NCBI GenBank assembly: GCA_010202845.1
Contig: CP047921.1
Location: 90,001-122,000 of the forward strand
Length of the DNA: 32,000 nucleotides
Reading direction: 5' to 3'
DNA from: Candidatus Saccharibacteria bacterium oral taxon 488
GTDB lineage: Bacteria > Patescibacteriota > Saccharimonadia > Saccharimonadales > Saccharimonadaceae
Every line of letters begins with the position of its first letter. The stretch's first letter is position 1. A program made the translations under genes and the position numbers. The notes under the pieces were generated by a model that had not been told where the DNA came from, did not search any database, and saw nothing but the letters and a program-made list of their open reading frames with translations. Below, piece after piece: positions 3,516 through 18,771 of this stretch.

Positions 3516-3875
3516 ATGAACGAATACGAACTGACCGTTCTTATTCATCCAGATTTGGAAGCAAATTTGGACGCGGCGCTGGACAAGGTTCGAGCGTTGA
3601 TCAAAGACAATGGTGGTGAAATCACCAAAGAAGACAACTGGGGCAAGAAAAAACTAGCCTATGCGATTCGCCGTGAAGACTTTGCGGTGTATGTTTACTT
3701 TGAGGTGAAGTTGCCAAGCAGTGCACCGCTCAAGATATCAAATGTTCTGAATATCACCGACGAGGTACTTCGTTATTTGTTGGTTAAGACCGACGAGAAG
3801 ACACGCCAGGCGCTTGCTGAGCAGAAAGAGCGCGAAGCTAAGGTTGCTACCGAGGCGGCTGATAAAGAAGCCTAA
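3516..3875 (+). CDS. rpsF: 30S ribosomal protein S6
   Basis: MNEYELTVLIHPDLE... is a typical S6 N-terminus. ATG 3516 is preceded by AAAGGAGG. The S6-SSB-S18 gene order is conserved. Confidence 0.93.
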   Translation: MNEYELTVLIHPDLEANLDAALDKVRALIKDNGGEITKEDNWGKKKLAYAIRREDFAVYVYFEVKLPSSAPLKISNVLNITDEVLRYLLVKTDEKTRQALAEQKEREAKVATEAADKEA

Positions 3876-3912
3876 TATTCGACGCGATACATAATAAAAA
3901 AGGAGGGTCATC

Positions 3913-4341
3913 ATGGCACGAAGTATCAACCAAGTTATTTTACTGGGACGGTTAACGCGCGATCCAGAGCAGCGGACAACGCCATCAGGTCGGACAGTTG
4001 TTAGCTTTAGTATCGCGGTTGATCGTGCCGGACAGGATGATCAAGCTGATTTTTTCGACGTTACCGCGTGGGAAAAATTGGGCGAACTGGTGATGCAGTA
4101 CCTGTCAAAAGGCCGCCGCGTGTTGGTGCAGGGTCGGTTGCGACAGGACAGCTGGGATGATAAAGAAACCGGCAAGCGCCGCTCGCGTATTGAAGTGACG
4201 GCGACCGACGTAACATTCCTTGACGCCCCGAGCGGTGATAGCGCGAATACAACCGCATCACGTAATACTAATACCAAGCAGGCTGAGACCGTAGCGGATA
4301 TTGATGATAAACCGATCGATCTTAGCGAGATACCGTTCTAA
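3913..4341 (+). CDS. ssb: single-stranded DNA-binding protein
   Basis: OB-fold N-terminus ([15 protein letters not shown]) and acidic C-terminal tip [23 protein letters not shown] lies upstream. Confidence 0.93.
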
Positions 4342-4352
4342 AGGAGAACAAA

Positions 4353-4556
4353 ATGGCAAAACGATTAAAGAAAGATACCCCAACGGTTTTTGACTATAAG
4401 GATGTCAAAACATTAATGCGCTATGTTAATGCGTATGGTCAAATTGAGCCGATAGCGAAGACGGGTCTCAGTGTCAAGCAGCAGCGTAGCTTGGCAGTGG
4501 CGATCAAGCGTGCTCGGCACTTAGCACTGCTGCCGTTTGTGTCGCAAGGGCAATAA
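4353..4556 (+). CDS. rpsR: 30S ribosomal protein S18
   Basis: [14 protein letters not shown]...[21 protein letters not shown] is a typical S18 sequence. SD AAGGAG lies upstream. Confidence 0.93.
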
Positions 4557-4614
4557 GTATACGTTGAGAGAACTCTCTAATCCCAAACGTATTTATAGAT
4601 AGGAGAGAAAGTCG

Positions 4615-4647
4615 AGTGGTCTGTGCAGGGGTAAGGCACAGGCCACT
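4615..4647 (+). terminator. 12-bp stem-loop downstream of rpsR (possible terminator or RNA-stability hairpin)
   Basis: agtggtctgtgc (4615-4626) pairs with gcacaggccact (4636-4647) with one G-U pair and a 9-nt loop. No U-tract follows directly; a T-rich run (cgtttttattttt) lies at about 4671-4685. Confidence 0.3.
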
Positions 4648-4829
4648 GTTGCTTGTGGGCTGCTGTACAGTGCGTTTTTATTTTTGATGCAGGATAGTAT
4701 TATAATGCCAAGCCCACTGTGGGATGTTTGAGTAAAAAATATGTTCAGCCGACAAGAAATACTCTGCCGTCCGAAAGAATGTTAGAATTAGGTACGGTAG
4801 CTTAATAGTTATAGGAAAGGAAAAACAAT

Positions 4830-5390
4830 ATGTATCAGCCGACAGATCTTAAAAAGGGTACGGTTTGTCAGATTGACGGTAAGCCATATCGCGTTATTGA
4901 ATATGGACAGAAGGTTATGGGGCGTGGAGGCTCTATTGTGAACGTTAAATTGAAAAACTTGCTGGACGGAAGTGTCATCCCGAAAACCTTTAAGGGTCAA
5001 GACAAAATTGAGCCAGCTGAGGTGACTAGCAAGACTGTTCAATATTTATATCATGACGGAGATATGTTCTGCTTCATGGATCCAGAAAGTTTTGAACAAT
5101 TTGAACTGTCTAACGATGTGGTAGATGAGGCAAAAAATTATTTGAAAGAAGGTTGTGAGCTGAATCTCCAGGTGTTTGACGGGCGAGTGATTAATGTTGA
5201 ATTACCAAAAAATCTTTATCTCGAAGTTACGTATACCGAAGATGTCGTGAAGGGCGATACAACTTCAAGCGTACTTAAGGGTGCAACGCTTGAGACGGGC
5301 CTTGTTATTAAGGTACCAGCATTCATTAAACAGGGCGATATTGTCAGTGTTGACACAGCGACGGGTGAATATCGAGAGCGCAAAAAATAA
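4830..5390 (+). CDS. efp: translation elongation factor P
   Basis: 186 aa. The KPYRVIEY...VKLKNLL loop region and C-terminal OB domains are typical of EF-P. The tip residue is Arg32 (MGRGG). Confidence 0.93.
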   Translation: MYQPTDLKKGTVCQIDGKPYRVIEYGQKVMGRGGSIVNVKLKNLLDGSVIPKTFKGQDKIEPAEVTSKTVQYLYHDGDMFCFMDPESFEQFELSNDVVDEAKNYLKEGCELNLQVFDGRVINVELPKNLYLEVTYTEDVVKGDTTSSVLKGATLETGLVIKVPAFIKQGDIVSVDTATGEYRERKK

Positions 5391-5411
5391 CAAAAGGGCC
5401 TTCTTGCCGGA

Positions 5412-5447
5412 AGCGTCGCCCAGGGTGTTCGGGCGACGCTTTTTGTT
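5412..5447 (+). terminator. rho-independent terminator of efp
   Basis: Perfect 10-bp GC-rich stem, agcgtcgccc (5412-5421) with gggcgacgct (5431-5440), and a 9-nt loop, followed by ttttgttgtt. Confidence 0.8.
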
Positions 5448-5634
5448 GTTATGAATACATCAAATAACGATAAAGAATAGAACGAGATTTTAGGTATTGA
5501 TGCTAAAAATACAACGTAATGTATGTATAGCTGGTAGGGTGTTTTTGGTGATACATACGACAGTTGTTTTCATGAAAAATATGGGCCTATTTGCGATAAT
5601 GGTGAGAGTCTTCTTAGCCACTACAGGGGTAAAT

Positions 5635-5755
5635 ATAACTATTGATGTATAAATTACACTGATGCGTAGTATACAACGTTGTATTTTAGTTAACGTAGAA
5701 TTAACGATAGCGAAGATCGGCCCATAGGTAAAAAAGAGAATAACTATTGATGTAT
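5635..5755. repeat. pair of perfect 16-nt direct repeats (ATAACTATTGATGTAT) 105 bp apart in a non-coding tract
   Basis: Copies at 5635-5650 and 5740-5755, with a partial third copy (TATTGATG) at 5495-5502. The second copy lies inside a 10-bp inverted repeat (5705-5714 / 5769-5778). Confidence 0.8.
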
Positions 5756-5795
5756 TTATAACAGCAGTTTCGCTATCGCAGTAGGTCGTTAGTTG

Positions 5796-5824
5796 TTGAG
5801 AAAAATATGTATTCAGGCTACAAT
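5796..5824 (+). promoter_or_regulatory. candidate promoter of tlyA (TTGAGA-17 nt-TACAAT)
   Basis: -35 at 5796-5801 and -10 at 5819-5824. The ATG at 5835 is only 10 nt after the -10. Confidence 0.4.
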
Positions 5825-5834
5825 GAGAAGTGAC

Positions 5835-6605
5835 ATGAAGCAGCGATTAGATAAAATGATACTAGAACGCGGGTTGGTTGAATCGCGTTCAGAAGCAGAG
5901 AACTGGATAGGCTTAGGGCAAGTCATGGTCAATGGTAGGGTGGCGACGCGTCCCGGATGTTTCGTTAATGAGACAGCAGACATTACATTGCTGACTCGTG
6001 AGCGGTACGTTTCGCGTGCAGGCCTCAAGCTAGCGGGCGTGGCGGATAGTTTTCGGTTGGACTTTCAGGGGAGAACAGTGCTGGACATAGGGTCGAGTAC
6101 TGGTGGATTTACTGATTTTGCGCTGCGTCATGGCGCCCGACGTGTGTATGCTGTTGATGTGGGCACGAATCAGTTGCACCATCGACTGCGTGACGATCGG
6201 CGCATAATATTACACGAAAAGACAGACGTTCGTGACTTTGAGCTTGATTGTCCACCAGACATTATCGTGGGAGACGTGTCATTTATTAGTCTGCGCGACA
6301 TTCTACCACACGTTGCAAAACGGCTGATGGGCAGTGCGACGGTGCTTGTAGCGATGGTAAAACCGCAGTTCGAGGCAGGGCGTCATTTGGTACAAAAGGG
6401 TGTTGTAAAAAATGCTGCTATACGACGAAAGATCCTGACCGATTTTGAGCAATGGGCAAAACAGTATTTTGTAGTTCTTGATAAAAAGGATAGCACCGTC
6501 GCTGGTAGTAAGGGTAACGTTGAGCGCTTTTATAAGTTACAACTAAAAAATAACAGAGGTAATAACTGTAGTAAAAAGGGCATCGTTGTACTTAAATCAA
6601 CGTAG
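5835..6605 (+). CDS. tlyA: TlyA-family rRNA 2'-O-ribose methyltransferase (S4 domain plus FtsJ-like MTase)
   Basis: MKQRLDKMILERGLVESRSEAENWI...VNG is an S4-like domain. LDIGSSTGGFTD is a SAM-binding motif. The start is chosen at the Met that aligns with family N-termini. Confidence 0.85.
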   Translation: MKQRLDKMILERGLVESRSEAENWIGLGQVMVNGRVATRPGCFVNETADITLLTRERYVSRAGLKLAGVADSFRLDFQGRTVLDIGSSTGGFTDFALRHGARRVYAVDVGTNQLHHRLRDDRRIILHEKTDVRDFELDCPPDIIVGDVSFISLRDILPHVAKRLMGSATVLVAMVKPQFEAGRHLVQKGVVKNAAIRRKILTDFEQWAKQYFVVLDKKDSTVAGSKGNVERFYKLQLKNNRGNNCSKKGIVVLKST

Positions 6606-6622
6606 TATAATATACAATAATG

Positions 6623-7702
6623 TTAGACATTGAACCGAAATTCGACAACATCGTTAGGCTGCATGATGTAATTTTTACCTTCAGTACGTATTTTACCCGC
6701 TTCACGGGCCTTAGCTTCTGAACCTGCGGCAACAAGGTCGTGGTAGCTAATGACTTGCGCGGCGATGAATCCGCGCTCAAAGTCTGAGTGGATGACGCCA
6801 GCAGCCTGTGGCGCCGTCCAGCCTTTATGTATTGTCCATGCCCTGACTTCCTTCTGACCTGCCGTGAGATAGCTTTGTAGACCAAGTGTGTCGTACGCGG
6901 CATGGATAAGCTGCGACAATCCGGTTTCGGAAGCCCCGTAGCTATCAAGTAGCTCCAAGGCGTCATTATTTGATAATTCTCTGAGCTCTTCTTCAAGCTT
7001 GGCACAAATAAATAATACTCGGGCTGGCGCGACGAGTTTGGCAAGCTTTTCCTGCAGGGCATGGTCGCCGAGTCCCGCCTCGTCGACATTAAATGTATAA
7101 ATAATTGGCTTGGCAGTGAGTAAATGAAGATCATTAATTATCTCATATTTGATATTTTCTATGGATGCTATCGGCATACCTGAATTAAGTGACGTCAGGA
7201 GCGTTTCAAGGTATGTAGCCACCTGTCGTGCCTCCGGCTTGGCTTTGGCTTCTTTCTGGAGACGAGGTAGACGATGTTCTATGGTTTGGATGTCGGCAAG
7301 GATAAGTTCGGTATTGATGATGTCAATGTCGGCCTGAGGGTTAATCGGAGTATTGTCGTGTCGTAATATATCTGAGTTTTCAAAGGCGCGAACGATGTGG
7401 ATAATGGCGTCGCATTCACGAATATTGTGCAAGAATTTATTGCCGAGCCCTTCTCCTTTTGAGGCGCCAGCTACCAATCCAGCGATGTCGACGAACGTTA
7501 CGGTCGCGGGGATAATTTTTTGCGTATCATACAGTTTTGCGAGTACGTCGAGCCGCTCATCGGGAACCGGTACGATGCCAGTATTCGGTTCAATGGTGGC
7601 AAAGGGGTAATTAGCCGCTAGAATATTATTGTTAGTAAGTGCATTAAATATGGTCGACTTACCGACATTTGGCAGGCCGACGATTCCGATTGATAGACTC
7701 AT
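6623..7702 (-). CDS. ychF: ribosome-binding ATPase YchF (Obg-like GTPase family)
   Basis: G1 motif GIVGLPNVGKST, a coiled-coil insertion and a C-terminal TGS-like domain (IHSDFERGFI...AEV). 359 aa. Confidence 0.95.
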   Translation of the reverse strand: MSLSIGIVGLPNVGKSTIFNALTNNNILAANYPFATIEPNTGIVPVPDERLDVLAKLYDTQKIIPATVTFVDIAGLVAGASKGEGLGNKFLHNIRECDAIIHIVRAFENSDILRHDNTPINPQADIDIINTELILADIQTIEHRLPRLQKEAKAKPEARQVATYLETLLTSLNSGMPIASIENIKYEIINDLHLLTAKPIIYTFNVDEAGLGDHALQEKLAKLVAPARVLFICAKLEEELRELSNNDALELLDSYGASETGLSQLIHAAYDTLGLQSYLTAGQKEVRAWTIHKGWTAPQAAGVIHSDFERGFIAAQVISYHDLVAAGSEAKAREAGKIRTEGKNYIMQPNDVVEFRFNV

Positions 7703-7730
7703 ATCGTGTATTATAACAAATTACACAAAC

Positions 7731-7759
7731 TTGCCTCAGTATATAATATGTATTAGAAT
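7731..7759 (+). promoter_or_regulatory. candidate promoter (TTGCCT-17 nt-TAGAAT), 7 nt from the ATG
   Basis: -35 at 7731-7736 and -10 at 7754-7759. The ATG at 7767 follows after 7 nt with no SD, which implies a leaderless transcript. Confidence 0.5.
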
Positions 7760-7766
7760 AAGCAGT

Positions 7767-8261
7767 ATGAATAAGGTTATTGTCTCGCGAATATTTATGA
7801 TAGTGGGTATCGTGTTGAGTGTCGGTGCGATAGTCGCCATTATCATGATGGTGATGGGGCGATTGCATGTTGGACTAAAAGAGCCGAGTCAAGATATCGC
7901 GCCAACCGCCAAGATGATATGTGACGAGGATATGATAAAAGAATATCGGTCAATTATCGCTGCGCCAAATGGGTATGGTCCGATAGCGCTTGAGGGGTTA
8001 GTGAAGAAGATCTCAGAACGTGGCGGCCCGGGTGACGATACGGTGTGTCACTATATTATGCTTCACGATGCATCGCTACGGAATGATCGCCAGCGGATTG
8101 ATCAGATTCATCAAGGGTTGATCAACTCGATGAAGATGCGTCAGGCGGTCGAGCCGTTTTATCGACTGGGTATTAATCAGGATACGGTAAAAGCACTGGT
8201 CGAGATCGGTAAGGCTGATGCGGGTGCGGGGAATAAGGATGGTACACCGGGTCAGGGTTAG
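7767..8261 (+). CDS. hypothetical small membrane protein (164 aa), first gene of the unknown trio
   Basis: The ORF track opens at 7629 but overlaps ychF and the promoter. ATG 7767 gives MNKVIVSRIFMIVGIVLSVGAIVAIIMMVMG, an N-terminal TM helix, followed by a soluble alpha-rich domain. No family recognised. Confidence 0.6.
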   Translation: MNKVIVSRIFMIVGIVLSVGAIVAIIMMVMGRLHVGLKEPSQDIAPTAKMICDEDMIKEYRSIIAAPNGYGPIALEGLVKKISERGGPGDDTVCHYIMLHDASLRNDRQRIDQIHQGLINSMKMRQAVEPFYRLGINQDTVKALVEIGKADAGAGNKDGTPGQG

Positions 8262-9897
8262 GGTCGGACTACGGCTCGTTATTGGCTATATGCTGGCACT
8301 TGTGGTTGTCGCATCGACGTTGGCGATTATTGGTGCGGATAGAGCAGAGGCGGTAGACTGTAGCGGTTTGAGCGGTCGACGACGTTTGATGTGTATTAAT
8401 GCACGCAATGATGGTGAACGGTTTGCGGTGCAATATATCTGTAAGGGCGGTGGAACGCGGTGCGGTGCGATGTGGATGTCGTCGCCTGGGACGTCGTATA
8501 CGAATGATGTTATTAACACCGTTAGCTGGAATGCGACGTCATTATCACTTGACTTGAGGGGGTCGGTGAACGGCAACGGTCAGTCACGAGCACGGGTGTG
8601 GGCGACAAATGTAACGGTTAGTCAGAATGGTCGGACATTACTGTCTGGCGGTACGCTTGATCGGGGGACGCATCCATCAGGCGCGTACCACTGGGTTGAT
8701 GGCGGTAGCAGCATTCGAGTAAATGGAATTGACATATCTGGTGTAGTTGCGCCAGGAAGTTCCGGCCGTATCATTTTGCAGGTGCGGCGCTGTTTCTATA
8801 GTAGTCCAGGCGGTAGCGGTGCTTGTGCGACACAAGATGTCGAGGTGTGGATTAAGCGTGAGCAGGCGCCAAACCAATGGACTGTTGAAGGGCAATCGCG
8901 AGTGTCAATCAATGGTGGCAGTTTAGTGCAAAACGCGACTGCTGCACCAGGACAGCGCGTACGATTTTTTCATTACCTGCGGAATAATTCTTCGTACACG
9001 ATTCCTCCCTATACCCTAAAGCGCATAGGAATTAATCAGGATATTAATGGTACGACAACGCATCATGCGTGGGCGTCGCCGTATACGCGTAGTGCTAGCC
9101 CGTGGAATACATTTTATGAGCCAAGCGATGTTAAGCCATATAATAATGTCTTTGGGGCTGAGGGGATCGTGACGCAGGATGATGTCGGTAAAACAGTATG
9201 TCAAAAGATTTTATGGCTGCCGGGTGCGTGGAATACTGATGGCTGGGGGGTTTCATCAAATGCCTGTGCATCGGTGCCGTATGATTATGAATTGCGACCG
9301 GAGGTGCAGGCACCAGATTATATTAATGAAGGAACGATTGAGGTGAGTGGCGTGACCGCGCGAATTAATCATACAGGATCGACACGGTCAAATCGGGCAA
9401 ATTATGCTGTAGTGCGGTTTGTGTTAAGGGGTGGTGGAAATTATACCGTGCCGGGCGGTGAGGGAGTTGTTGTGCCGTATGATAGACGTTCGCCGGGTAA
9501 TTTAGTGAGCGATTGGGATTGTTATATCGCCAAGAACACGATTAAAAATAGTCGACCGGGTTTGCAGGTGGCAGATTGTACATCAAATAATTTGGCACGT
9601 AATGGTGCGGGAACAATTATCCAGCGAGGTGGGCTGGAAATTCCGCTTGGCAAGGATAACTTGAGTGGAGTGACGATGACGACTGGTGACCAGTTGTGCT
9701 ATATGACTATTGTAAGTACATACAACCAACATGTGAATACCAGTACGTTTCGCTATGCGGTAGATTGTGCAAAGGTTGCCGGACGGCCAAAAGTTCAGTT
9801 TTGGGGGGCGGATGTGCGAGTTGGTGTCGGGATAGACGGCAGTGCGGGTAATAATAATGCGGAAGTCAGGACATCACTGACGAGGGTGAGGCGATAG
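8218..9897 (+). CDS. hypothetical secreted protein (559 aa), Cys-containing and beta-rich
   Basis: Arg-rich n-region, a hydrophobic core (LVIGYMLALVVVASTLAIIG) and ADRAEA-VDC resemble a signal peptide. There are many Cys residues plus G/N/T/S-rich segments. The start is ambiguous (8218 or 8239). It overlaps the upstream gene. Confidence 0.7.
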   Translation: MRVRGIRMVHRVRVRVGLRLVIGYMLALVVVASTLAIIGADRAEAVDCSGLSGRRRLMCINARNDGERFAVQYICKGGGTRCGAMWMSSPGTSYTNDVINTVSWNATSLSLDLRGSVNGNGQSRARVWATNVTVSQNGRTLLSGGTLDRGTHPSGAYHWVDGGSSIRVNGIDISGVVAPGSSGRIILQVRRCFYSSPGGSGACATQDVEVWIKREQAPNQWTVEGQSRVSINGGSLVQNATAAPGQRVRFFHYLRNNSSYTIPPYTLKRIGINQDINGTTTHHAWASPYTRSASPWNTFYEPSDVKPYNNVFGAEGIVTQDDVGKTVCQKILWLPGAWNTDGWGVSSNACASVPYDYELRPEVQAPDYINEGTIEVSGVTARINHTGSTRSNRANYAVVRFVLRGGGNYTVPGGEGVVVPYDRRSPGNLVSDWDCYIAKNTIKNSRPGLQVADCTSNNLARNGAGTIIQRGGLEIPLGKDNLSGVTMTTGDQLCYMTIVSTYNQHVNTSTFRYAVDCAKVAGRPKVQFWGADVRVGVGIDGSAGNNNAEVRTSLTRVRR

Positions 9898-11907
9898 ATG
9901 GCGCTGCAGTTAAAAACCCAAAGGTGGTGGATCGGAGTCGGTGCCGTTGGGCTAGTGGTATTCGGAAGCCTTGGAGTGTATATCTGGCGTCATTATATCA
10001 GCGTAACGGCACAAGTAGCACCTGACGTAACTCACGTCGAGAGGGCGGTGCTAGCAGCCAGCACGACAACGCCACCGGGCGGCAGTAGTTATGGCCCAGC
10101 CACGTCATATCACATGCCATGGGAGAAATATCCGGTTGGCGAGAGAGAGCAGATCGGCGGGACGCCAGAACGGATTAGCAATTGGCCAACGGCTGGGGAT
10201 GGTGGGTCTGACTGTCGTGTGAACATAAATGCCACAACAGTGGTCGATGGTGTTGGCGGGACATTTAATTATGGTGGGTTTACGATGATGCCATCACCGA
10301 TGTCTGGTAATCGGACAGTTGGTCAGGATAAGTGTAGCGGATCGGTGTCAACATGGACGGCACCGGACGGTGAAAATAGCACATCTTCGGCAACGCCAGC
10401 ACCGAGTTGGTTTGACGACGTGGTAGCGGCCAATAGCGGTGGTCTAGCGGGCGGAGCATATGTTAATCCACGAGCGTATGGTGGCTGGGCGACGGATGCT
10501 AATGCCACGACGAAAGTACCATTTGGTGTACCTGCCCAACGATCGGGCGCGGCTGGGGCGGCTGAGTTTGCCGAATGCGGCGGGGTTGCTAAGGAATCAG
10601 GAACATCTGCGTGGGCAACTGATGGAGCGTTTCGGCAGTCAATGTATGATCAAGGCGGCCAGTCGAAGCCGCTCTGGGGTGCGCGTTGTAAGGACGAGAC
10701 AAAGTTGAAAGAGACACTGACCCGGCGTCACAATGCGCCGCAAACTGATACCAATGGTGAGAATTACGTGAAGTCGTCTGGCGTAACGCTATTTCGGCAG
10801 AAATTCCGGCTGACGAGCCAGCAGCTCGAAGAGATTCGTCAGCTGGATTTGTTGAACGACGGACGATCAGGACTGTACTTACGTTTGGCGGTTGATGATT
10901 ATGCTGCGGTATACATTAATGGTAAGCCAGTCTTTACCAATCCGAAAGCGTCGTCTGGTGTCGAAATGAAGAGAATCATCGCGGATTATTTACGGGCTGG
11001 TGATAATGTGATTGCTCTAGAGGTGCAAGATGCGATTGCTCCAACTAGCCTCGCCAATGCTAATGCGGCTGCTCGGTGGCTGCTCGGTGTGTATGCGCCA
11101 AAGGGGTGGCAGCCAGTACCGGGGGAGCCGCGGCTGTACGGATCGTGGGCGGAATATGCCGTTAGTGCGCCTGGACAAATTATTTCTTCCTCGGGGGCAG
11201 GCTTGTCGTCTGCGCCGACAGGGCGAACGGGGGCGATTGAGGCACGGCAATATAATGATCTGACATTTCAAAACACTAACACCCCGTTTGGTAATTTTCG
11301 CGACAAGATGCCGACTGTACGCACACCTGATGCCTATTTTACGAACAAGGGAACTTTGTCTGGGGCGGTGTCTATGAGCGACGTGGCTAGTGGTGTGTAT
11401 CAGGCTGGCAACCTGACGATTACCGGTGGAGAAATTAAGCGTGGCCGGCAAATTGTTATCAAATCGGGCGGCGTGGTGACTATCAAGGGTGACGTAAAAC
11501 AGGAGGGCGGTAACTATTCGGCGGCTCGGGATCTGCCGCAGTTGATTATCAGTGCTCAGCACATTATTATTGAGCCAAATGCTACACAGGTTGATGCTTG
11601 GCTTATCGCTAGGAGCGGGGCAGTTAACACCTGCGATACCATAGTTCGCGATAGTCGTCAGTGGTTGTCGGGTCTGGACGCGAAAACGTGTGAAAAACAG
11701 CTGCGCATTAATGGTCCAATTATCGCGAAGCACCTCTTTTTGCGCCGTACATTTACGAAGGGTGGTGATACCTCTGGCAATAATCCGGGCGAGCCGGCGG
11801 AAATATTGAATTTGCGTGCCGATGCATATTTGTGGGGAAATGAGCGGTCGAAAGAATCGGGGGCTATCAAAACGATGCATCTAAAGGAATTACCGCCACG
11901 TTTTTAA
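9898..11907 (+). CDS. hypothetical N-terminally anchored surface protein (669 aa) with a galactose-binding-like jelly-roll segment
   Basis: The ATG directly abuts the upstream TAG (9895-9897), with GAGG 6 nt upstream. TM helix WWIGVGAVGLVVFGSLGVYIW. Residues ~290-400 (LFRQKFRLT...LYLRLAVDDYAAVYINGKPVF...AGDNVIALEVQD) resemble the sugar-binding jelly-roll of GH2 and rhamnosidase N-terminal domains. The C-terminal part has beta-helix-like repeats. Confidence 0.75.
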   Translation: MALQLKTQRWWIGVGAVGLVVFGSLGVYIWRHYISVTAQVAPDVTHVERAVLAASTTTPPGGSSYGPATSYHMPWEKYPVGEREQIGGTPERISNWPTAGDGGSDCRVNINATTVVDGVGGTFNYGGFTMMPSPMSGNRTVGQDKCSGSVSTWTAPDGENSTSSATPAPSWFDDVVAANSGGLAGGAYVNPRAYGGWATDANATTKVPFGVPAQRSGAAGAAEFAECGGVAKESGTSAWATDGAFRQSMYDQGGQSKPLWGARCKDETKLKETLTRRHNAPQTDTNGENYVKSSGVTLFRQKFRLTSQQLEEIRQLDLLNDGRSGLYLRLAVDDYAAVYINGKPVFTNPKASSGVEMKRIIADYLRAGDNVIALEVQDAIAPTSLANANAAARWLLGVYAPKGWQPVPGEPRLYGSWAEYAVSAPGQIISSSGAGLSSAPTGRTGAIEARQYNDLTFQNTNTPFGNFRDKMPTVRTPDAYFTNKGTLSGAVSMSDVASGVYQAGNLTITGGEIKRGRQIVIKSGGVVTIKGDVKQEGGNYSAARDLPQLIISAQHIIIEPNATQVDAWLIARSGAVNTCDTIVRDSRQWLSGLDAKTCEKQLRINGPIIAKHLFLRRTFTKGGDTSGNNPGEPAEILNLRADAYLWGNERSKESGAIKTMHLKELPPRF

Positions 11908-11911
11908 GGGT

Positions 11912-11939
11912 TTTACATTTTACTATGCTTATGTATAAT
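11912..11939 (+). promoter_or_regulatory. promoter of the type IV pilus operon (TTTACA-16 nt-TATAAT)
   Basis: -35 at 11912-11917 and perfect -10 at 11934-11939. The pilM ATG at 11948 is 8 nt after the -10 and has no SD. Confidence 0.6.
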
Positions 11940-11947
11940 AGAATAGT

Positions 11948-12994
11948 ATGAAAATAGCAAAAGGGCTGGGCGACTTTTTCGGATTAGACATCGGGACGAA
12001 TGCGGTGCGCGTGGTTCAGCTGGCGCGAACGAGTAACGGGTGGAATCTGCTGCACTATGGTTATGCGCCTGTCGACCCGAAGATTACAGGTAGTGATTCG
12101 CCAGAGGCGCAGCGTAAGCTTGGTGAAGTGATCATGACCGCTGTTGGACAGAGCGGTATCAAGACGCAAAATGTAGCGATTGGGTTACCGTCGAGCAAGA
12201 CCTTTACGGCAATTATTGATGTACCAAAAGTGTCAGACCAAGAGCTAAAGGCGACCATGAAATACCAGGTTGATCAGTACATTCCTATGGCGATTGAGGA
12301 CGCCAAGGTTGATTGGGCGCTGCTCGGCGACAGTTTGCGTGAGCAGGGTCAGTACGAAGTGTTATTGACGAGTGCGGCGATTAGCTATGTCGAGGAACGA
12401 CTCGAGTTCATTGAAGGGCTTGGCTTTAATGTGGTCGCTGAGGAACCGGATCCGATCGCGATGCTTCGGGCATTAGCGCCGACTGATGGAGCGACCGCAA
12501 AGTTAGTACTGGATATGGGCGAACATTCGACTGACTTGGCAGTCATTTATGGCGATATGCCGCGGCTAGTGCGCACGGTGCCGAGCGGACTGCAAGCGTT
12601 GGTGCGGGCGGCAGTGCAAAATCTCAACGTGCAGGATGATCAGGCTCGCCAGTTTATTATCAAGTTTGGCTTGGCACCTGACCGGCTCGAGGGGCAAGTT
12701 CTCAGGGCGATTGACGGCGTGCTGGATAATTTTGCAGCTGAGCTGACCAAATCAATCAAGTTCTTCCAGACGCGCTACCCGAGTATTTCCGTGTCAGGAA
12801 TTCTGCTGTCGGGCTTTGGCGCGGCAATACCGATGATGGATAATTATATTGCCAGCAAGACTGGTATACCAGCGACTACGGCTGATCCGTGGCAGCATGT
12901 CAGTCTTGGGCAGGCTGATCAGCAAAAATTAGCACCAATTGCCTCGGAGTTTGCGACGGTCGTTGGTTTAGCGCAGCGGAGGAATGGGTCGTGA
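11948..12994 (+). CDS. pilM: type IV pilus assembly protein PilM (actin-like ATPase fold)
   Basis: The N-terminal FGLDIGTNAVRVVQL motif, the 348-aa length and the position ahead of pilN/pilO. Confidence 0.88.
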   Translation: MKIAKGLGDFFGLDIGTNAVRVVQLARTSNGWNLLHYGYAPVDPKITGSDSPEAQRKLGEVIMTAVGQSGIKTQNVAIGLPSSKTFTAIIDVPKVSDQELKATMKYQVDQYIPMAIEDAKVDWALLGDSLREQGQYEVLLTSAAISYVEERLEFIEGLGFNVVAEEPDPIAMLRALAPTDGATAKLVLDMGEHSTDLAVIYGDMPRLVRTVPSGLQALVRAAVQNLNVQDDQARQFIIKFGLAPDRLEGQVLRAIDGVLDNFAAELTKSIKFFQTRYPSISVSGILLSGFGAAIPMMDNYIASKTGIPATTADPWQHVSLGQADQQKLAPIASEFATVVGLAQRRNGS

Positions 12995-13722
12995 TTGAGA
13001 TTAATTTGATTCCTGACGTCAAACGCGAGTTACTTCGAGCGAAAATGATGCGCAACGCCGTGACGGCGATGTCAATAACCGTTGGCATGATTGCGGTCGG
13101 AGTGGCGGTTGCGCTTGGCTTGATCTTTGGCGGCCAGATAGCCCTGGAGGCGCTCCATGATGGGACGATTAAGAGCAAGACACGTGAACTGACGTCGATT
13201 GAAGACCTTGATAAGCTAGTGACCATTCAGCATCAGCTGGCAACAATCAACAAATTATCAAGTGAGCGTCAGGCTGATTCGCGACTATTTGACGTGATGA
13301 CGGCGGTCAATCCGGTGGCGCCAAATAGTATTAAAATCGCAACACTAAAGCTCAAGCCAGAGTCGCGGACAATTACTATTGAGGGCTCAGCCGAAAACGG
13401 CTATATTGCACTGGAGATATTTAAAAAGACGATTACTAATACGACTGTGCAGACAACACAAAATGGGCAAGAGGTTAAACAACCGCTGGCTGAGAATCTG
13501 CAGGCGGGTGAGGCCAGCTTTGGTGAAGATGCCAACGGTAAGAAGGTGTTGCGCTTCTCGTTCACGTTTACCTATCCGGCAGAATTGTTCTCGAAAACGA
13601 GCGGCTCAGTGGTGATTGCGACGCCAAACGGTAAAGTTGATGTGACTGATTCGCGGCTGGGGGTGCCAGAGAGCCTATTTGCCAAGAAGCCAAAAGATGC
13701 TTCAAATAAGGAGAAAAACTAA
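12991..13722 (+). CDS. pilN: PilN-like pilus alignment protein
   Basis: GTG start overlaps the pilM stop (GTGA). Starts MIEINLIPDVKRE, the INLLP-type motif that binds PilM, then one TM helix. Confidence 0.75.
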   Translation: MIEINLIPDVKRELLRAKMMRNAVTAMSITVGMIAVGVAVALGLIFGGQIALEALHDGTIKSKTRELTSIEDLDKLVTIQHQLATINKLSSERQADSRLFDVMTAVNPVAPNSIKIATLKLKPESRTITIEGSAENGYIALEIFKKTITNTTVQTTQNGQEVKQPLAENLQAGEASFGEDANGKKVLRFSFTFTYPAELFSKTSGSVVIATPNGKVDVTDSRLGVPESLFAKKPKDASNKEKN

Positions 13723-14399
13723 TGCCTGAGAATAAAGATGTCGCTATTCGTAAACGCCAGCAGATTGATTCATCAAAGAAAACCATGTTTCTGTTCGTGG
13801 CGGGCGCGGCGTTTGTGAGTGGCGTGGCAATTGTGGTGTCGTTCTTCCTCGTGCGGCAGATTTTGTTTCATGGCGCAGTGGTGCTCGCGAAGCAAGACAC
13901 CATCAATACGCTGGAGAATAATAAAAAGGCGGCCGAGTCGCTCAAAGATAATGTGCGTTCACTAGAGGCGAATGAAGCACTTAACTCAGTGAAGTTAACG
14001 GATAGTAGTAGTCCATTGCAAACGATTCTTGATGCGCTGCCGGCTAGTGCGAATGCCGATGCGCTCGGTGCGTCTATTCAGAAGAAGTTCGTCAATGGCA
14101 TCGCCGGTCTGTCACTAGAAAGCATCTCGGTCCACTATACGGCGAATGAGTCGGGTGCGGAGCAAGAGGACGCTGGTGATGGTCGCTCGGCGGTGAGTTT
14201 CACCATGACAGTGAGCGGTACGTCGTCAAGCCTCAAGGAGCTGTTAACGCGCTTTGAAAAATCAATTCGGGTTATCAATATTACCGAGATTGAGATGCAG
14301 GCCAGCGAGGACGGCAAGATGACGATGGATATCTCTGGCAAGGCCTATTTTGAGCCGGCGCAAAAAGTTGGATTAGGAAAGAAGGTGATCAAGCCATGA
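13722..14399 (+). CDS. pilO: PilO-like pilus alignment protein
   Basis: TAATG overlap with pilN. One TM helix, a coiled-coil-like segment and a C-terminal alpha/beta domain. The assignment rests on architecture and position only. Confidence 0.55.
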   Translation: MPENKDVAIRKRQQIDSSKKTMFLFVAGAAFVSGVAIVVSFFLVRQILFHGAVVLAKQDTINTLENNKKAAESLKDNVRSLEANEALNSVKLTDSSSPLQTILDALPASANADALGASIQKKFVNGIAGLSLESISVHYTANESGAEQEDAGDGRSAVSFTMTVSGTSSSLKELLTRFEKSIRVINITEIEMQASEDGKMTMDISGKAYFEPAQKVGLGKKVIKP

Positions 14400-14626
14400 A
14401 GAAGAGCGATATAGCGATGATCGTGTTGATAGCCAGCCTTGGCGTTGTGGTGGCATATTTCGTTGCCAGCAGCATTCCATTCTTGCGCGTACCATCATCG
14501 GGTGTGGAAGTGCAGACGATATCAAAAATTAGCCCAGATATTGAGCAGCCAGATAAGGCAGTATTTAATCGTGATGCTATTAACCCAACGGTGGAAGCAA
14601 TTGTTGGCAAAGCGACTGGTAGTTAG
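14396..14626 (+). CDS. small single-pass membrane protein (76 aa) in the pilus operon
   Basis: ATGA overlap with the pilO-like gene. TM helix IAMIVLIASLGVVVAYFVA. It occupies the slot where diderms encode PilP/PilQ. Confidence 0.5.
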   Translation: MKKSDIAMIVLIASLGVVVAYFVASSIPFLRVPSSGVEVQTISKISPDIEQPDKAVFNRDAINPTVEAIVGKATGS

Positions 14627-14638
14627 CGCGGAGGTGAT

Positions 14639-16402
14639 ATGGCGCTACTGACGGATGATATGCAGGGAAAATTGATTGGCTTGCTGACGAGCGAGGGCTT
14701 GATCGAGCGGTCGGTTGTTAAGGAGGCGCAAAAACGCGCCAGCGAGTCGGGTAAGCCGCTACTGTCGCTGTTGACCGAGGAGCACCTTTTGGAGAATGAA
14801 TTATTGGTGCATGCGGTGGCGCAATTGTCTGGTGTGCCGTATGTTAATCTCGCAAGCAGCGTGATTGAGCAGCACATCTTGAACCTGCTGCCGGAGGATG
14901 TTGCCGAGCGATTTATGGCGGTACCACTGGCCGAGGTGCAGGGGCGCTTGGCGGTGGCGATGATTGATGCTAATAATGTCCAGGCGGTTGACTACCTAGC
15001 AAATCGTATCCAGCGACCGCTCAAGGTATTTATGGCCTCCGAAGAAAGTATCCGTCACGTCCTTGGTCAGTACAGAACAGACTTATCATCGGTCAATGAA
15101 GCAGCGGAGGACTCGCAGCGCGAAGCACTGGATGAGTCGTCGCAGAACATTGTGACAATCGTTCAAGATTCACCGATTTCGCGGGCGCTTAGTACGATCC
15201 TAGAGTATGCAGTAAAGAGCCATGCCTCGGACGTACACATTGAGCCATTAGAAAAGGCGTTGAAAATTCGCTGTCGTGTTGATGGCGTGTTGCGGGAAAT
15301 TATGCAGCTACCAAAAAGTATTGAGCCAGCGCTGGTCAGCCGCATTAAAATTCTGTCAAATCTCAAAATTGATGAGCATCGGATTCCGCAGGATGGCCAG
15401 TTTGCAGTCAATGTGGCTGGCAAGGATGTCGATCTGCGTATTGCGATTTCACCGGTGGTATGGGGAGAGCAGGTGGTGATTCGTCTGCTTGATAAGACAG
15501 GTAACTCGTTTGATCTGACTGATATGGGGTATGCTGGGCGCGCACTGAGAGCCATCCAAAAAGGCATCAAGCGGCCAAGCGGAATGATTTTGACGTCTGG
15601 GCCGACTGGTTCGGGTAAGTCAACTAGCTTGTATGCGCTGATCAAGGAAATCAAGGACGACTCGATCAATATTGTGACACTGGAGGATCCGGTGGAGTAC
15701 AAGATTGACGGCGTTAATCAGATCCAGGTGCATGCTGATGTTGGACTGACGTTTGCATCGGGCTTACGGTCAATTCTCCGGCAGGATCCCGACGTGGTGA
15801 TGGTCGGTGAAATCCGCGATACCGAGACAGCGAACTTGGCGGTGCAAGCGGCATTGACCGGACACTTAGTCTTCTCGACGCTGCATACCAATTCGGCGGC
15901 GGGTGTGCTGCCGCGGCTGTTGGATATGGGGATTGAACCGTTCTTGATTGCTAGTACCGTGAACACCATTATTGGTCAACGGCTGGTCAGGCGGGTGGCG
16001 CCAAAGTATGATTCATATCAATCGTCACCACTTGAAACGGAGACTATTCAGTCAACGGTTGGCCACCTCCTGCCAAAAACTCAGGCTGACATATCGACCG
16101 TTTCGCAGGATTTGGGCTACAAGGCCTTGCCATTATCTGGTCAAGCCGCTTATACTTTAGTCAGGGGCCGCGATATGCCGCAGACGCCGCAAGGTTACTC
16201 AGGACGATGTGGTTTGTACGAGGTGATGGACGTCACTGAGGAAGTTCAAAACCTGATTGTCAAGCGGGCGACGAGCGCCGAGATTCAGCGGCTTGCCATT
16301 CAGCAGGGCATGATAACGATGCGTCAAGACGGTTATCTCAAGGCGCTCAGTGGCGTGACAACATTAGAGGAAGTAAATCGGGTAGCAGCCGATACAGCAT
16401 AA
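14639..16402 (+). CDS. pilB: type IV pilus extension ATPase PilB (GspE family)
   Basis: SD GGAGGTG. N-terminal T2SSE_N-like domain, Walker A GPTGSGKST, Asp box, Walker B VVMVGEIRD and His box LVFSTLHTN. Confidence 0.93.
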   Translation: MALLTDDMQGKLIGLLTSEGLIERSVVKEAQKRASESGKPLLSLLTEEHLLENELLVHAVAQLSGVPYVNLASSVIEQHILNLLPEDVAERFMAVPLAEVQGRLAVAMIDANNVQAVDYLANRIQRPLKVFMASEESIRHVLGQYRTDLSSVNEAAEDSQREALDESSQNIVTIVQDSPISRALSTILEYAVKSHASDVHIEPLEKALKIRCRVDGVLREIMQLPKSIEPALVSRIKILSNLKIDEHRIPQDGQFAVNVAGKDVDLRIAISPVVWGEQVVIRLLDKTGNSFDLTDMGYAGRALRAIQKGIKRPSGMILTSGPTGSGKSTSLYALIKEIKDDSINIVTLEDPVEYKIDGVNQIQVHADVGLTFASGLRSILRQDPDVVMVGEIRDTETANLAVQAALTGHLVFSTLHTNSAAGVLPRLLDMGIEPFLIASTVNTIIGQRLVRRVAPKYDSYQSSPLETETIQSTVGHLLPKTQADISTVSQDLGYKALPLSGQAAYTLVRGRDMPQTPQGYSGRCGLYEVMDVTEEVQNLIVKRATSAEIQRLAIQQGMITMRQDGYLKALSGVTTLEEVNRVAADTA

Positions 16403-16420
16403 AAGAAAAGGGGGACGATT

Positions 16421-17491
16421 ATGAATAATCAAGAATTACGCATCGAAATTTTACTCGAAGAGGTGGTCAAGAAGCGAGCCTCAGACCTCCACATTCAAGT
16501 GGGCCTGCCACCGATGCTGCGCATTGACGGAACATTGGTCGCAGCAACGGGCACACAGCCGCTTGATGAGGCGACCGTGGAGCGGCTGGTATTTCAGATT
16601 CTTGATGAGGATCAGCGGCAAATTTTGCTCAAAGATAAGGAATTTGATTTTTCGTTTGCATTCGGTACACTGGGGCGATTCCGGGTGAATGCCTTTCATG
16701 AGAGGGGTAATTTGGCGGCGGCGCTGCGCTTAATTCCAAACGAGATCAAGACTGCGCAGGAGCTGGGCATGCCGCCGATTGTCAATACATTTGCTGATTT
16801 TCCACGCGGTTTGGTGCTGGTGACTGGGCCGACTGGCTCTGGCAAGTCGACAACTTTGGCGGCGCTGGTTGATAAGATCAACGCCGAAAAGTCGCAGCAC
16901 ATCATTACTATCGAAGACCCGATTGAGTTCACGCACAAGTCAAAAAAATCGGTGGTAGTGCAGCGCGAGGTTCATTATGACACCTATTCGTTCTCAGCGG
17001 CGCTGCGTTCTAGCCTGCGCCAAGACCCAGACGTGGTGCTGATCGGCGAGATGCGCGACCTCGAGACAATCTCGGCGGCGATTACCATTGCCGAGACCGG
17101 GCACTTGGTGTTTGCGACGCTACACACCAACTCGGCGGCACAGTCGATTGACCGTATGATTGACGTCTTTCCGCCGCATCAACAGCCGCAAATTCGTGCG
17201 CAGCTCAGCAATATTCTGATGGCAATTTGTTCGCAGCGGCTGGTGCCGTCTATCGGTGGCGGTCGGGTGGTGGCGGCCGAGATCATGATTGCTAATCCAG
17301 CGGTGCGTAATATTATTCGCGAGGGCAAGAGCCATCAGCTGGATGCTGTCATTCAGACGGGTGCTGATCAGGGTATGCAGACGATGGATCGAACGCTAGT
17401 GAATCTGGTACAGAACGGTACGATTACGTATGATAGTGCCCGTGAGTTTGCGGTTGATCTAGCGGAGTTTGAGCGGCTTATTCGAGGATAG
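16421..17491 (+). CDS. pilT: type IV pilus retraction ATPase PilT
   Basis: 356 aa. ASDLHI, GPTGSGKSTT, VVLIGEMRD, LVFATLHTNSAAQ, and AIRNLIREGK-like NIIREGKSHQ. Confidence 0.93.
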   Translation: MNNQELRIEILLEEVVKKRASDLHIQVGLPPMLRIDGTLVAATGTQPLDEATVERLVFQILDEDQRQILLKDKEFDFSFAFGTLGRFRVNAFHERGNLAAALRLIPNEIKTAQELGMPPIVNTFADFPRGLVLVTGPTGSGKSTTLAALVDKINAEKSQHIITIEDPIEFTHKSKKSVVVQREVHYDTYSFSAALRSSLRQDPDVVLIGEMRDLETISAAITIAETGHLVFATLHTNSAAQSIDRMIDVFPPHQQPQIRAQLSNILMAICSQRLVPSIGGGRVVAAEIMIANPAVRNIIREGKSHQLDAVIQTGADQGMQTMDRTLVNLVQNGTITYDSAREFAVDLAEFERLIRG

Positions 17492-17494
17492 TGC

Positions 17495-18706
17495 ATGAAA
17501 AAATATCATTATGAGGCCAGGGATTCAGCCACGCAAAAGATTACCAAGTCGGTTGTGCAGGCTGAGAGCGAGGTTGCCGCGGCGAAATTGCTGAGCGCTC
17601 AGGGCTTCGTGCCGCTGAAAATTGAGCTTCAAGATGAGCGTGAGGGCTTCTTTCAGCGATTGTCAAATAAAATATCGTCCAAGGACAAGATCGTCTTTAC
17701 GCGGCAGCTAGCGACGTTGATTGGTGCGGGGTTGCCGCTGGCGCAGAGCATGCATACCGTACTGGAGCAGACGCAAAACAAGCGGATGCAGAGTATCATT
17801 CAGGAGATAATTTCCGATATTGAGGGCGGTCGGCAACTGTCAAGTGCGTTCGAGAAGCATCCAGAAGTATTTGACAATGTATACGTGGCGTTGGTGGCGG
17901 CCGGTGAGGCGTCAGGAACCCTAGATGAAGCGCTCAAGCGCATCGCATCACAGCAGGAAAAAGACGCAGCAATGATTGGTAAAGTACGCGGTGCTATGGT
18001 CTATCCAGCAATTGTGCTGTTGGTAATTATCGCGGTGGTGGTGTTCATGCTCGTGATGGTAGTGCCGCAGGTCGAAGGACTGTATGGCAGCTTACACAAA
18101 GAGCTACCGTTCACAACGAAGGCCATGGTCAGCGTCGCTGGTTTTTTGGCGCAGTTTTGGTGGGCGTTGGTGATTTTACTTGGCATCGGTTTATATTTCT
18201 TTCAGCAGTATCTCAAAACCAAGGCTGGTATTCGTGCTAAAGATACGTTCAAGCTGAACATACCAGTGTTTGACGCCATGTTCCGCAAGCTGTACATGGC
18301 TCGCTTTACCCGCACCGGTCAAACACTTCTTAATAGCGGGGTGGCGATGCTGGACATGTTGCGCATCACTGCTCGGGCGGTCAATAATTCAGTTATCCGT
18401 CAAGGCATTGAGCATGCTAGCGAGAAGGTGAAGGGCGGCAAGGCGCTGTCGGTGTCCTTAAAAAATGAGGATTATATCTTGCCGATGGTGCCGCAGATGA
18501 TCAAGATCGGTGAACAGTCGGGTAAGATTGATGAGATGATGGGCAAGTGCGCGCAGATTTACGAAGATGAGCTAGATGAGGAGATCAAGGCGATCACGAC
18601 AACGATTGAACCAGTGCTGATGGTGGTCTTGGCGGTCGTGGCCGGCGTGATGGTGGGTGCGATAATCTTTCCAATTTATAATCTGGTCGGAGATATTAGC
18701 CTCTAG
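17495..18706 (+). CDS. pilC: type IV pilus platform protein PilC (GspF family)
   Basis: 403 aa with two GspF repeats (FTRQLATLIGAGLPL... and FTRTGQTLLNSGVAMLD...) and three TM segments. Confidence 0.92.
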   Translation: MKKYHYEARDSATQKITKSVVQAESEVAAAKLLSAQGFVPLKIELQDEREGFFQRLSNKISSKDKIVFTRQLATLIGAGLPLAQSMHTVLEQTQNKRMQSIIQEIISDIEGGRQLSSAFEKHPEVFDNVYVALVAAGEASGTLDEALKRIASQQEKDAAMIGKVRGAMVYPAIVLLVIIAVVVFMLVMVVPQVEGLYGSLHKELPFTTKAMVSVAGFLAQFWWALVILLGIGLYFFQQYLKTKAGIRAKDTFKLNIPVFDAMFRKLYMARFTRTGQTLLNSGVAMLDMLRITARAVNNSVIRQGIEHASEKVKGGKALSVSLKNEDYILPMVPQMIKIGEQSGKIDEMMGKCAQIYEDELDEEIKAITTTIEPVLMVVLAVVAGVMVGAIIFPIYNLVGDISL

Positions 18707-18771
18707 ACAATCCATAAGCAGTACGGTACAATAACGAAAGAAAGTTAAGTCACAGAAAGGTGGGCAACTTC

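Follow-up and report, generated by a model that had tools for sequence, protein, structure and literature searches.

We analyzed a 32,000-nt stretch of the genome of Candidatus Saccharibacteria bacterium oral taxon 488 (CP047921.1, positions 90,001 to 122,000; hereafter, the window), in which the gap between ychF, on the reverse strand, and pilM, at the head of the type IV pilus (T4P) locus T4P-1, is filled by three co-oriented, coupled open reading frames (ORFs), denoted g1, g2 and g3. The gene order runs from S6, SSB, S18, EF-P and TlyA through ychF to g1, g2, g3 and pilM onwards. The T4P-1 genes follow in an order identical to that in relatives, and after the T4P-1 pilin come a prepilin peptidase and then further pilin-like genes, the pilin-like genes together spanning positions 18760-23363. 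A first-pass annotation, made from the sequence alone, had described g1-g3 as a three-protein module of surface proteins fused to the front of the pilus locus. Comparison with related loci instead identifies g2 and g3 as the two halves of one ancestral gene, which align to single ORFs of relatives, so that the locus is a two-gene cassette consisting of a small gene and a split large gene (Table 1).

The three genes are not chance ORFs, because exact or near-exact copies are found in 230-312 database members and all three are under purifying selection, with a ratio of nonsynonymous to synonymous substitution rates (dN/dS) of 0.05-0.17 overall in comparisons with three diverged members of the group (0.05-0.06 for g2, 0.08-0.09 for g3 and 0.13-0.17 for g1; for the comparison genes pilM and ychF, 0.01-0.03 and ~0.05, respectively). 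QHU93526.1 is an exact match to the g1 protein, and proteins of oral taxon 488 are found in the g2 and g3 clusters. Every sequence-level statement of the first-pass description of these genes held up, with one correction. The ORF coordinates bear out three coupled, co-oriented genes, and the export or anchor signals claimed for all three N-termini are present as hydrophobic segments, as are the many cysteines of g2. The numbers of cysteines are even throughout (2 in g1, 12 in g2 and 6 in g3), and none of the proteins contains hydrophobic segments beyond the N-terminal ones. The overlap of g1 and g2 is real, but the g2 start proposed at 8218 (the longest ORF) gives way to the ATG at 8239, which is conserved in relatives and picked by gene callers, reducing the overlap from 44 to 23 nt; ATG 8290, the start in some NCBI records, reads GTG in two related genomes. 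The annotation had recognized no family in any of the three proteins, and profile searches of Pfam, NCBIfam and PHROGs likewise recognized nothing except for a sub-threshold match to a glycoside hydrolase family 2 (GH2) domain in g3; PDB sequences yielded no match to g1, g2 or g3.

Table 1. Features of the cassette and its flanks (window coordinates)
Feature	Position	Strand	Description
ychF	6623-7702	-	ORF call; directly 5' of the cassette
Cassette promoter-like site TTGCCT-17-TAGAAT	7731-7759	+	Scan 9/12; distance from -10 box to g1 ATG, 7 nt
g1	7767-8261	+	164-aa bitopic membrane protein; N-terminal transmembrane helix, extracytoplasmic helical domain, two invariant Cys (C52, C94)
g2, front half of the split large protein	8239-9897	+	552 aa from the conserved ATG; 559 aa from 8218 (longest ORF)
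g2 aa 46-218, lineage-variable Cys-rich N-terminal region	8353-8871	+	Aligns poorly across the family; P0005 counterpart pLDDT <50
g2 aa 219-534, conserved beta-sandwich core	8872-9819	+	Equivalent to P0005 residues 300-608, pLDDT ~75-92
Motif 1 KVQFWGADVR, g2 aa 525-534	9790-9819	+	Ends the beta-sandwich core
Fission junction	9888-9900	+	Shine-Dalgarno GAGG 9888-9891, CGA, TAG 9895-9897, ATG 9898-9900; one reading frame
g3, back half of the split large protein	9898-11907	+	669 aa; own export signal at aa 1-38
g3 aa 39-285, fast-evolving part of the variable insert	10012-10752	+	Insert separates motif 1 from motif 2 across the family
g3 aa ~295-380, beta-jelly-roll like the GH2 N-terminal sugar-binding domain	10780-11037	+	Sub-threshold Pfam, Foldseek; pLDDT 56-78
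g3 aa 414-470, motif-2 block YGSWAEYA...SSSGAGLS...LTFQN	11137-11307	+	Invariant columns; highest conservation within the family
g3 aa 485-669, conserved C-terminal beta-rich domain ending ...ELPPRF	11350-11904	+	Family-defining; pLDDT 84-96 for aa 485-615
pilM-operon promoter TTTACA-16-TATAAT	11912-11939	+	11/12; 8 nt before the pilM ATG
pilM	11948-12994	+	Pfam PF11104, E 1.5e-37
T4P-1 machinery: pilM, pilN-like, pilO-like, 76-aa ORF, pilB, pilT, pilC, pilin	11948-19245	+	Pfam; context, outside the cassette

The evidence that the large gene was split comes from its homologues. Searches with g2 and g3 returned 7-9 matches each, those of lower identity being mostly single proteins of 672-1165 aa. 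In these single-chain homologues, a g2-like front ending in KVQFWGxDVR (motif 1) is followed, directly or after an insert, by a g3-like back that extends from YGSWAEYG..SGAGLS (motif 2) to ELPPR[F/Y], and in a multiple alignment with 9 of them, g2 covers the front and g3 covers the back. One such homologue, P0005, is 1165 aa long and comes from a single ORF that directly precedes pilM; its residues 300-620 align with g2 aa 219-534 (54% identity, E 1e-107) and its residues 794-1165 with g3 aa 286-669 (46% identity, E 8e-93). The possibility that g2 and g3 are mutual paralogues was rejected, as BLASTP shows no similarity between them. The traits that define the family are thus divided here between different polypeptides, with (K)VQFWGxDVR found in g2 and motif 2 together with the C-terminal domain ending in ELPPR[FY] found in g3. 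The single polypeptide of the family is missing from the window, and its location directly upstream of pilM is retained.

To place the split among relatives, we used a genome scan that covered one genome per GTDB species, with the C-terminal alignment as the query; it detected 324 loci with relatives, the best 80 of which were analyzed by mapping ychF, g1, g2, g3, pilM, pilB and pilT onto them and calling ORFs between ychF and pilM. Only 10 of these 80 species-level loci carry the split, all of them from the taxon-488 group (L010-L019), and among the metagenome contigs that we looked up, it is found in the taxon-488 contigs L001-L004 and in the sister lineage L005. The remaining species-level loci contain one ORF of 737-1168 aa, except for L039, with an in-frame stop elsewhere. 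Because every other lineage has one large ORF, parsimony indicates that the split is a derived fission.

The first-pass reading of the g2/g3 junction, in which TAG abuts ATG and a GAGG Shine-Dalgarno sequence lies inside the upstream gene, was confirmed, and the junction proved invariant in 14 taxon-488-group genomes. Because g2 and g3 share a reading frame interrupted by one TAG, the pair could in principle represent a decaying pseudogene, an assembly error or a single product of read-through. We give this explanation practically no credence and reject it: the identical junction appears in 14 independent assemblies, including the complete genome CP128407.1 (856 kb), and all 14 genomes keep both ORFs intact; both ORFs evolve under purifying selection at the low dN/dS given above; the sister lineage L005 (~60% identical) retains the GAGG followed by TGA, one spacer base and ATG, which places g3 in a different frame; and g3 has a conserved Shine-Dalgarno sequence and its own export signal.

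The position of the cut is informative as well. The spacing between motif 1 and motif 2 is 18-31 residues in minimal members of the family and 291-441 residues in others; in the window, 26 residues separate motif 1 from the end of g2 and 413 precede motif 2 in g3, and therefore, the gene was cut where the variable insert begins. The model of the unsplit P0005 has a predicted local distance difference test score (pLDDT) below 50 from residue 609, that is, it is unstructured or unmodelled at the region of the cut, and P0005 contains no hydrophobic segment where the g3 export signal sits. The N-terminal export signal of g3 is therefore new, and a signal of this kind is what the downstream fragment of a secreted protein would require. 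A scan of diversity within the group revealed no hypervariable patch, the variation being located mostly in the signal and transmembrane (TM) regions. The fission is maintained, with both halves separately exported, translationally coupled and under selection.

A different kind of break was observed at L039 (positions 3608-6544), in a metagenome-assembled genome of the Nanosynbacter type, where a gene of ~978 aa is broken just after motif 2 by an in-frame stop, yielding 737 and 237 aa; the interruption may be an independent break or a pseudogene, or else stem from a sequencing error.

The termini of the two halves show how they are likely to be exported. The g2 protein starts with an Arg-rich n-region, a hydrophobic segment (aa 12-43) and an AEA-VD site, the features of a Sec-type signal peptide, and ends with ...TRVRR. 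In g3, the hydrophobic segment occupies aa 10-30, and the sequence ..ISVTA-QVAP is compatible with signal-peptidase cleavage, AQVAP being conserved in P0002 and P0003. Neither g2 nor g3, which ends in ...ELPPRF, has an LPXTG signal or a C-terminal hydrophobic segment. Downstream of the new signal, g3 aa 39-285 could not be matched significantly to the inserts of unsplit relatives, and comparison of hidden Markov models of the N-terminal region of g3 and these inserts detected weak similarity in the jelly-roll part only.

The first-pass annotation had also placed a promoter upstream of g1, and our scan recovered this site; a second promoter-like match lies at 7720-7747. The TAGAAT box and the 'aagcagtATG' sequence are conserved in L010, L005, L080 and L025. 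Because the -10 box ends 7 nt before the ATG, the g1 leader would be very short or absent. Across lineages, the large gene is separated from pilM by 40-55 bp (in the window, 11907 to 11948), and no terminator-like site was found by the scan between g3 and pilM. These signals suggest separate promoters for the cassette and the pilus operon, and transcription may also read through into pilM. As a separate observation, in both the cassette and the pilM operon, here (7731-7766 and 11912-11947, respectively) and in relatives, the ATG follows the end of the -10 box by 7-12 nt and lacks a Shine-Dalgarno sequence, which suggests that the cassette and pilM mRNAs are leaderless or have very short leaders, whereas g3 has a clear GAGG.

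The small gene of the cassette has counterparts in many lineages, in which a gene of 150-220 aa precedes the large gene with an overlap or abutment of 0-23 nt. Most of these small partners share the layout of g1, with its hydrophobic N-terminus (aa 1-37), namely, a TM helix followed by ..CGxD..Y.. and ..D.TC.. with two invariant Cys. A second subclass of small partners lacks the Cys residues and produces weak TPR_21/TPR matches; hhalign links the two subclasses with 87% probability (E 4e-6) through a single match of 51 columns. Weak TPR_21 matches were detected in 2/12 relatives of g1, while the g1 of the window itself matches no TPR or SurA profile, and a PDB sequence-profile search with the g1 family alignment retrieved nothing meaningful. 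In having one N-terminal TM helix and an extracytoplasmic helical domain, the g1-type partners resemble YfgM (TPR_21, PF09976) and PpiD (SurA_N_3), and the large protein P0063 carries an N-terminal TM segment and a SurA_N_3-like region; in contrast to YfgM and PpiD, the g1 of the window shows no TPR or SurA profile match, and the link to TPR consists of the one hhalign match. The SurA_N_3-like region of P0063 spans aa 19-125, preceded by the TM helix and fused to the N-terminus of a member of the large family. Elsewhere in the window, a 374-aa protein (25461-26585, forward strand) shows weak SurA_N-type matches like those of PpiD/PrsA chaperones.

The large-protein family extends far beyond oral taxon 488. 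A search of 1.84 billion cluster representatives (clusters defined at 50% identity) with the family profile retrieved 5523 proteins at E<=1e-3 and, at the stricter threshold of E<=1e-30, 2577, mostly 700-1300 aa in length; the clusters of distant members carried no names that would indicate their taxonomy. The best 80 of the 324 loci in the genome scan all belong to Saccharibacteria, and we found no relatives of the family among the phage genomes and viral contigs searched. Conserved linkage to pilM-pilB-pilT, which had been proposed as a check, is strongly supported: the family gene is located directly upstream of these genes, on the same strand, in 77 of the 79 species-level loci with enough flanking sequence. 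The same is true of 8 of the 10 metagenomic homologues that were looked up, down to ~28-35% identity, in which the gene directly precedes pilM; these 8 include a form bearing a vWA domain, a form with a TM segment and a SurA_N_3-like region, and a locus with a tandem pair. No Pfam match to the conserved core was found among the members checked (8 distant relatives), and a PDB sequence-profile search with the large-protein alignment detected no relative with a solved structure. Accessory N-terminal modules in relatives include vWA (P0065), CARDB-like, DUF7507-like, SurA_N_3-like and Listeria-Bacteroides repeat domains.

Other variations on the family theme were noticed along the way. At L095 (1887-7262), the small-plus-large pair occurs twice in tandem (156+732 aa and 169+720 aa) between ychF and pilM, reflecting a local duplication. 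In P0007, P0008 and P0014, the N-terminus is occupied by another domain of ~200 aa, marked by a conserved GxxFIxxTMxG and by a Cys within CANP[ILV]G. This domain, which might be enzymatic, matches nothing in Pfam and does not occur in the protein of the window.

Structure prediction followed by Foldseek searches, also among the checks proposed originally, identified only generic immunoglobulin-like (Ig-like) sandwiches and a GH2-type jelly roll. In the P0005 model, residues 300-608 form confident beta-sandwiches and residues 980-1110 a confident beta-rich C-terminal domain. The matches of the core to PDB are generic tandem Ig-like sandwiches, including CfaB pilin fusions, integrin, complement MG, arrestins and the AgI/II adhesin, whereas the conserved C-terminal domain (g3 aa 485-615) has no match in PDB or BFVD. 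The jelly roll of g3 matches GH2 enzymes in PDB over 84-97 columns, mostly with a root-mean-square deviation of ~3 A and E ~1e-3. The GH2 catalytic TIM-barrel is absent from g3 according to Pfam, NCBIfam and Foldseek, and hence the jelly roll would be a binding module, not an enzyme. Altogether, with beta-sandwiches, a GH2-type jelly roll, and vWA and CARDB-like modules in relatives, the domain content looks like that of an adhesin, and the family probably represents a cell-surface adhesin.

Each of the known systems that the cassette resembles differs from it in clear ways. Like PilY1/PilC (PF05567), the large protein is a Sec-type non-pilin encoded in a T4P cluster, with a variable N-terminus (including vWA in some members), a conserved C-terminal domain and a presumed role in binding surfaces or hosts. 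However, the cassette shows no sequence or profile similarity to PilY1/PilC, with no Pfam match to its C-terminal beta-propeller domain in g2, g3 or the 8 relatives; it is located upstream of pilM, outside the minor pilins, with members also found beyond pilus loci; and it is here divided into two polypeptides in a family that is usually paired with a small membrane protein. Modular minor pilins similarly combine adhesive modules with T4P in a cell without an outer membrane, as do Streptococcus sanguinis PilB (vWA) and PilC (lectin) (PMC8179133), and in Nanosynbacter lyticus TM7x, PilX1 (jelly roll) and PilX2 (beta-propeller) come from the same phylum and the same T4P-1 setting (PMC12206443), but those proteins possess the N-terminal pilin helix, whereas g1-g3 have ordinary hydrophobic export signals. 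The N-terminal methylation motif PF07963 is absent from g1-g3, while the pilin at 18760-19245 matches it (E 7.5e-6). The core of g2 is modelled as beta-sandwiches matching the folds of Ig-like adhesins (AgI/II-type, 4tsh) and CfaB tandems (3f84/3f85), but these matches are generic (TM-scores 0.1-0.3, ~10% identity), and unlike Gram-positive LPXTG adhesins or chaperone-usher pilins, g2 and g3 have neither an LPXTG signal nor a donor-strand pilin organization. Finally, g3 aa ~295-380 resembles the galactose-binding-like jelly roll of the GH2 sugar-binding domain (PF02837) by both profile and fold, but differs from GH2 glycosidases in scoring below the Pfam threshold and in lacking the catalytic TIM-barrel.

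T4P biology in Saccharibacteria has been described in several studies (PMC12206443, PMC9894109, PMC10633639). T4P-1 is conserved across the phylum and drives twitching, and the T4P inventory published for N. lyticus TM7x begins with pilM1 (TM7x_00415), leaving the upstream gene unlisted (PMC12206443). In the papers searched, we found no mention of the gene upstream of pilM1 in TM7x, and the T4P and transcriptome supplements omit it.

These observations can be combined into a model. The g1 product would be a small membrane-anchored helical (TPR-like) protein, acting as a membrane-tethered anchor or chaperone. Genes 2 and 3 derive from one ancestral large, Sec-exported, disulfide-rich protein that consisted of a signal peptide, a variable N-terminal module, a beta-sandwich core and KVQFWGxDVR, followed by an optional insert with a sugar-binding jelly roll, YGSWAEYG..SGAGLS and a C-terminal beta domain ending in ELPPR[F/Y]. 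In the oral-taxon-488 lineage, this protein was cut at the start of the insert, with the downstream piece gaining a start codon, a Shine-Dalgarno sequence within the upstream gene and an export signal, such that the two pieces are exported separately, in coupled amounts, and may reassemble outside the membrane. The most likely job of the large protein would be the recognition of the host surface, in support of the host-contact role played by the neighboring retractile T4P-1 pilus: host-cell glycans may be bound by the insert and the variable N-terminal modules, while the conserved C-terminal domain may dock to a conserved partner, for which the small membrane protein, the envelope and the pilus or its minor pilins are candidates. 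Host recognition beside T4P-1 fits because adjacency to pilM is kept through the turnover of sequences and domains, because the modules are of the adhesin type, and because of the known T4P biology.

We put even confidence in the overall interpretation of the locus as a two-gene, Saccharibacteria-specific surface cassette with a split large gene, likely an accessory adhesin or glycan binder serving the neighboring T4P-1 pilus. A functional link to the pilus is plausible, and several observations weigh against it or against parts of the interpretation. The pilM promoter is conserved as TTTACA/TTGCAA-N16/17-tgTATAAT in all 14 of the 14 lineages inspected, ending 8-12 nt before the ATG, and the description of the genes as fused to the pilus locus does not hold at the level of transcription, with this separate promoter preceding pilM in every lineage examined. 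The family also has members outside pilus loci: a small-plus-large pair in an unrelated context (L093), a distant singleton away from pilus genes (L091), a 1247-aa paralogue beside genes of the arginine-deiminase pathway and a DsbA-like thioredoxin gene (L027, 4034-7777), and, following a sortase and a 246-aa small ORF, a paralogue of 1086 aa that carries a Listeria-Bacteroides repeat (L079, 3807-7804). In Nanosynbacter, including the complete genome of TM7-008, there is one large gene of 978-996 aa and no small partner gene. The neighborhood S6-SSB-S18-EF-P-TlyA-YchF is equally syntenic in relatives, and the adjacency to pilM could thus partly reflect general conservation of gene order. In Southlakia epibionticum ML1, ychF (SEML1_0103, ending at 103880) is followed after 12 bp by pilM (SEML1_0104, starting at 103892), and the T4P1 genes were scored essential (PMC10633639); with ychF abutting pilM at an essential T4P1 locus, the cassette is not required for the pilus of that species. 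On the structural side, the match of g3 aa 295-376 to PF02837 Glyco_hydro_2_N (E 0.0086, 16.5 bits) falls below the cut-off of 28, and the structure models are partial because the alignments contain only 18-22 sequences, with a mean pLDDT of 53.8 for P0005 and 63.7 for g3 aa 286-669. The motif-2 block (g3 aa 414-470) has a pLDDT below 50 in both models despite the highest conservation in the family, so that this block may be a segment that folds against a partner, or else the poor modelling may reflect the shallow alignment. Function, localization and pilus association alike are what we infer, and this too tempers the case. Of the original proposal, an adhesin working with the pilus, the first part accords with the domain content, which fits an adhesin or glycan binder, whereas we can only infer cooperation with the pilus, given the pilM promoter, the S. 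epibionticum locus and the paralogues elsewhere.

The most serious rival is a pilus-independent envelope or surface adhesin, or glycan binder, with g1 as its membrane chaperone or anchor and the adjacency to pilM as inherited gene order. The two separate promoters, the family members in unrelated contexts, the S. epibionticum locus and the equal synteny of the surrounding housekeeping genes all speak for this alternative; nevertheless, we consider it somewhat unlikely, as the same-strand position next to pilM, with its 40-55 bp gap, is kept at 28-35% protein identity and through fission, domain swaps and tandem duplication, and no terminator-like site separates g3 from pilM. At the other end, the cassette may be an accessory component of T4P-1 proper, widespread across the phylum, that is, a host-specificity adhesin which the pilus presents or cooperates with, a PilY1 analogue on a new fold working as a two-piece non-covalent complex; in this specific form, the idea is tentative and, taken as a whole, unlikely. 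A sub-case of the pilus-serving interpretation, in which the large protein acts as a pilus-tip or priming factor of the PilY1/PilC kind, with its C-terminal domain seated on the T4P-1 minor-pilin complex and its variable modules binding the host, follows a PilY1-like logic (a large Sec-exported non-pilin with a variable N-terminus, including vWA in P0065, and a conserved C-terminus, in a T4P locus) and would suit a conserved, twitching pilus. We regard it as quite improbable, however, considering that there is no sequence or Pfam similarity to PilY1/PilC, that the cassette is not encoded with the minor pilins, that the gene is missing between ychF and pilM in S. epibionticum while paralogues occur elsewhere, and that in TM7x other proteins, PilX1 and PilX2, have been proposed as PilY1-like. 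It is highly improbable that the cassette encodes a structural part of T4P-1 that guides the fiber through the wall or S-layer of a monoderm-like envelope, in place of a secretin or alignment subunit. The cassette does come first before pilMNO, comparable to pilQ as the last gene of pilMNOPQ in diderms, and its C-terminal domain is conserved with phylum-wide linkage, but length and domain content vary widely, N-terminal modules can be exchanged, family members also reside away from pilus loci, an essential T4P1 locus lacks the gene, and searches of Pfam and NCBIfam with g1-g3 detected neither a secretin C-terminal domain nor any match of the PilP/PilQ type. The pilM promoter, the copies elsewhere, the S. 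epibionticum locus and the general gene order are the reasons why the cassette is unlikely to be a core component of the machine and why a pilus-independent function is taken seriously beside the favored accessory adhesin.

Several features of the window outside the cassette deserve mention. Between the pilO-like gene and pilB lies a 76-aa ORF (~14396-14626, forward strand) with no family match that is present in every related locus (73-77 aa), and its S. epibionticum counterpart (SEML1_0107) was scored essential in a transposon-sequencing table (PMC10633639). The minor-pilin cluster is followed by a XerC/D-like tyrosine recombinase (23376-24296, reverse strand; Phage_integrase, E 3e-43) and then by a nucleoside diphosphate kinase. 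GC skew is positive in every 1-kb bin of the window (1-32000), and nearly all genes are on the forward strand, consistent with a single replication arm on which genes are strongly co-oriented with replication.

Saccharibacteria live only attached to host bacteria, and T4P-1 is essential in the genetically tested strains. The cassette provides a concrete, testable candidate for a determinant of host recognition and host range, with ~5,500 clusters, no Pfam model and swappable modules of the adhesin type. If it is indeed a surface adhesin associated with the pilus locus, it would be built on an undescribed family, naturally split in this lineage. In its split form, the large protein provides a clear natural case of a secreted protein undergoing fission, whose downstream half needed to acquire both an export signal and translational coupling, and if the cassette is indeed a host-specificity adhesin belonging to T4P-1, the fission would show that the large protein works as a non-covalent complex of two pieces.

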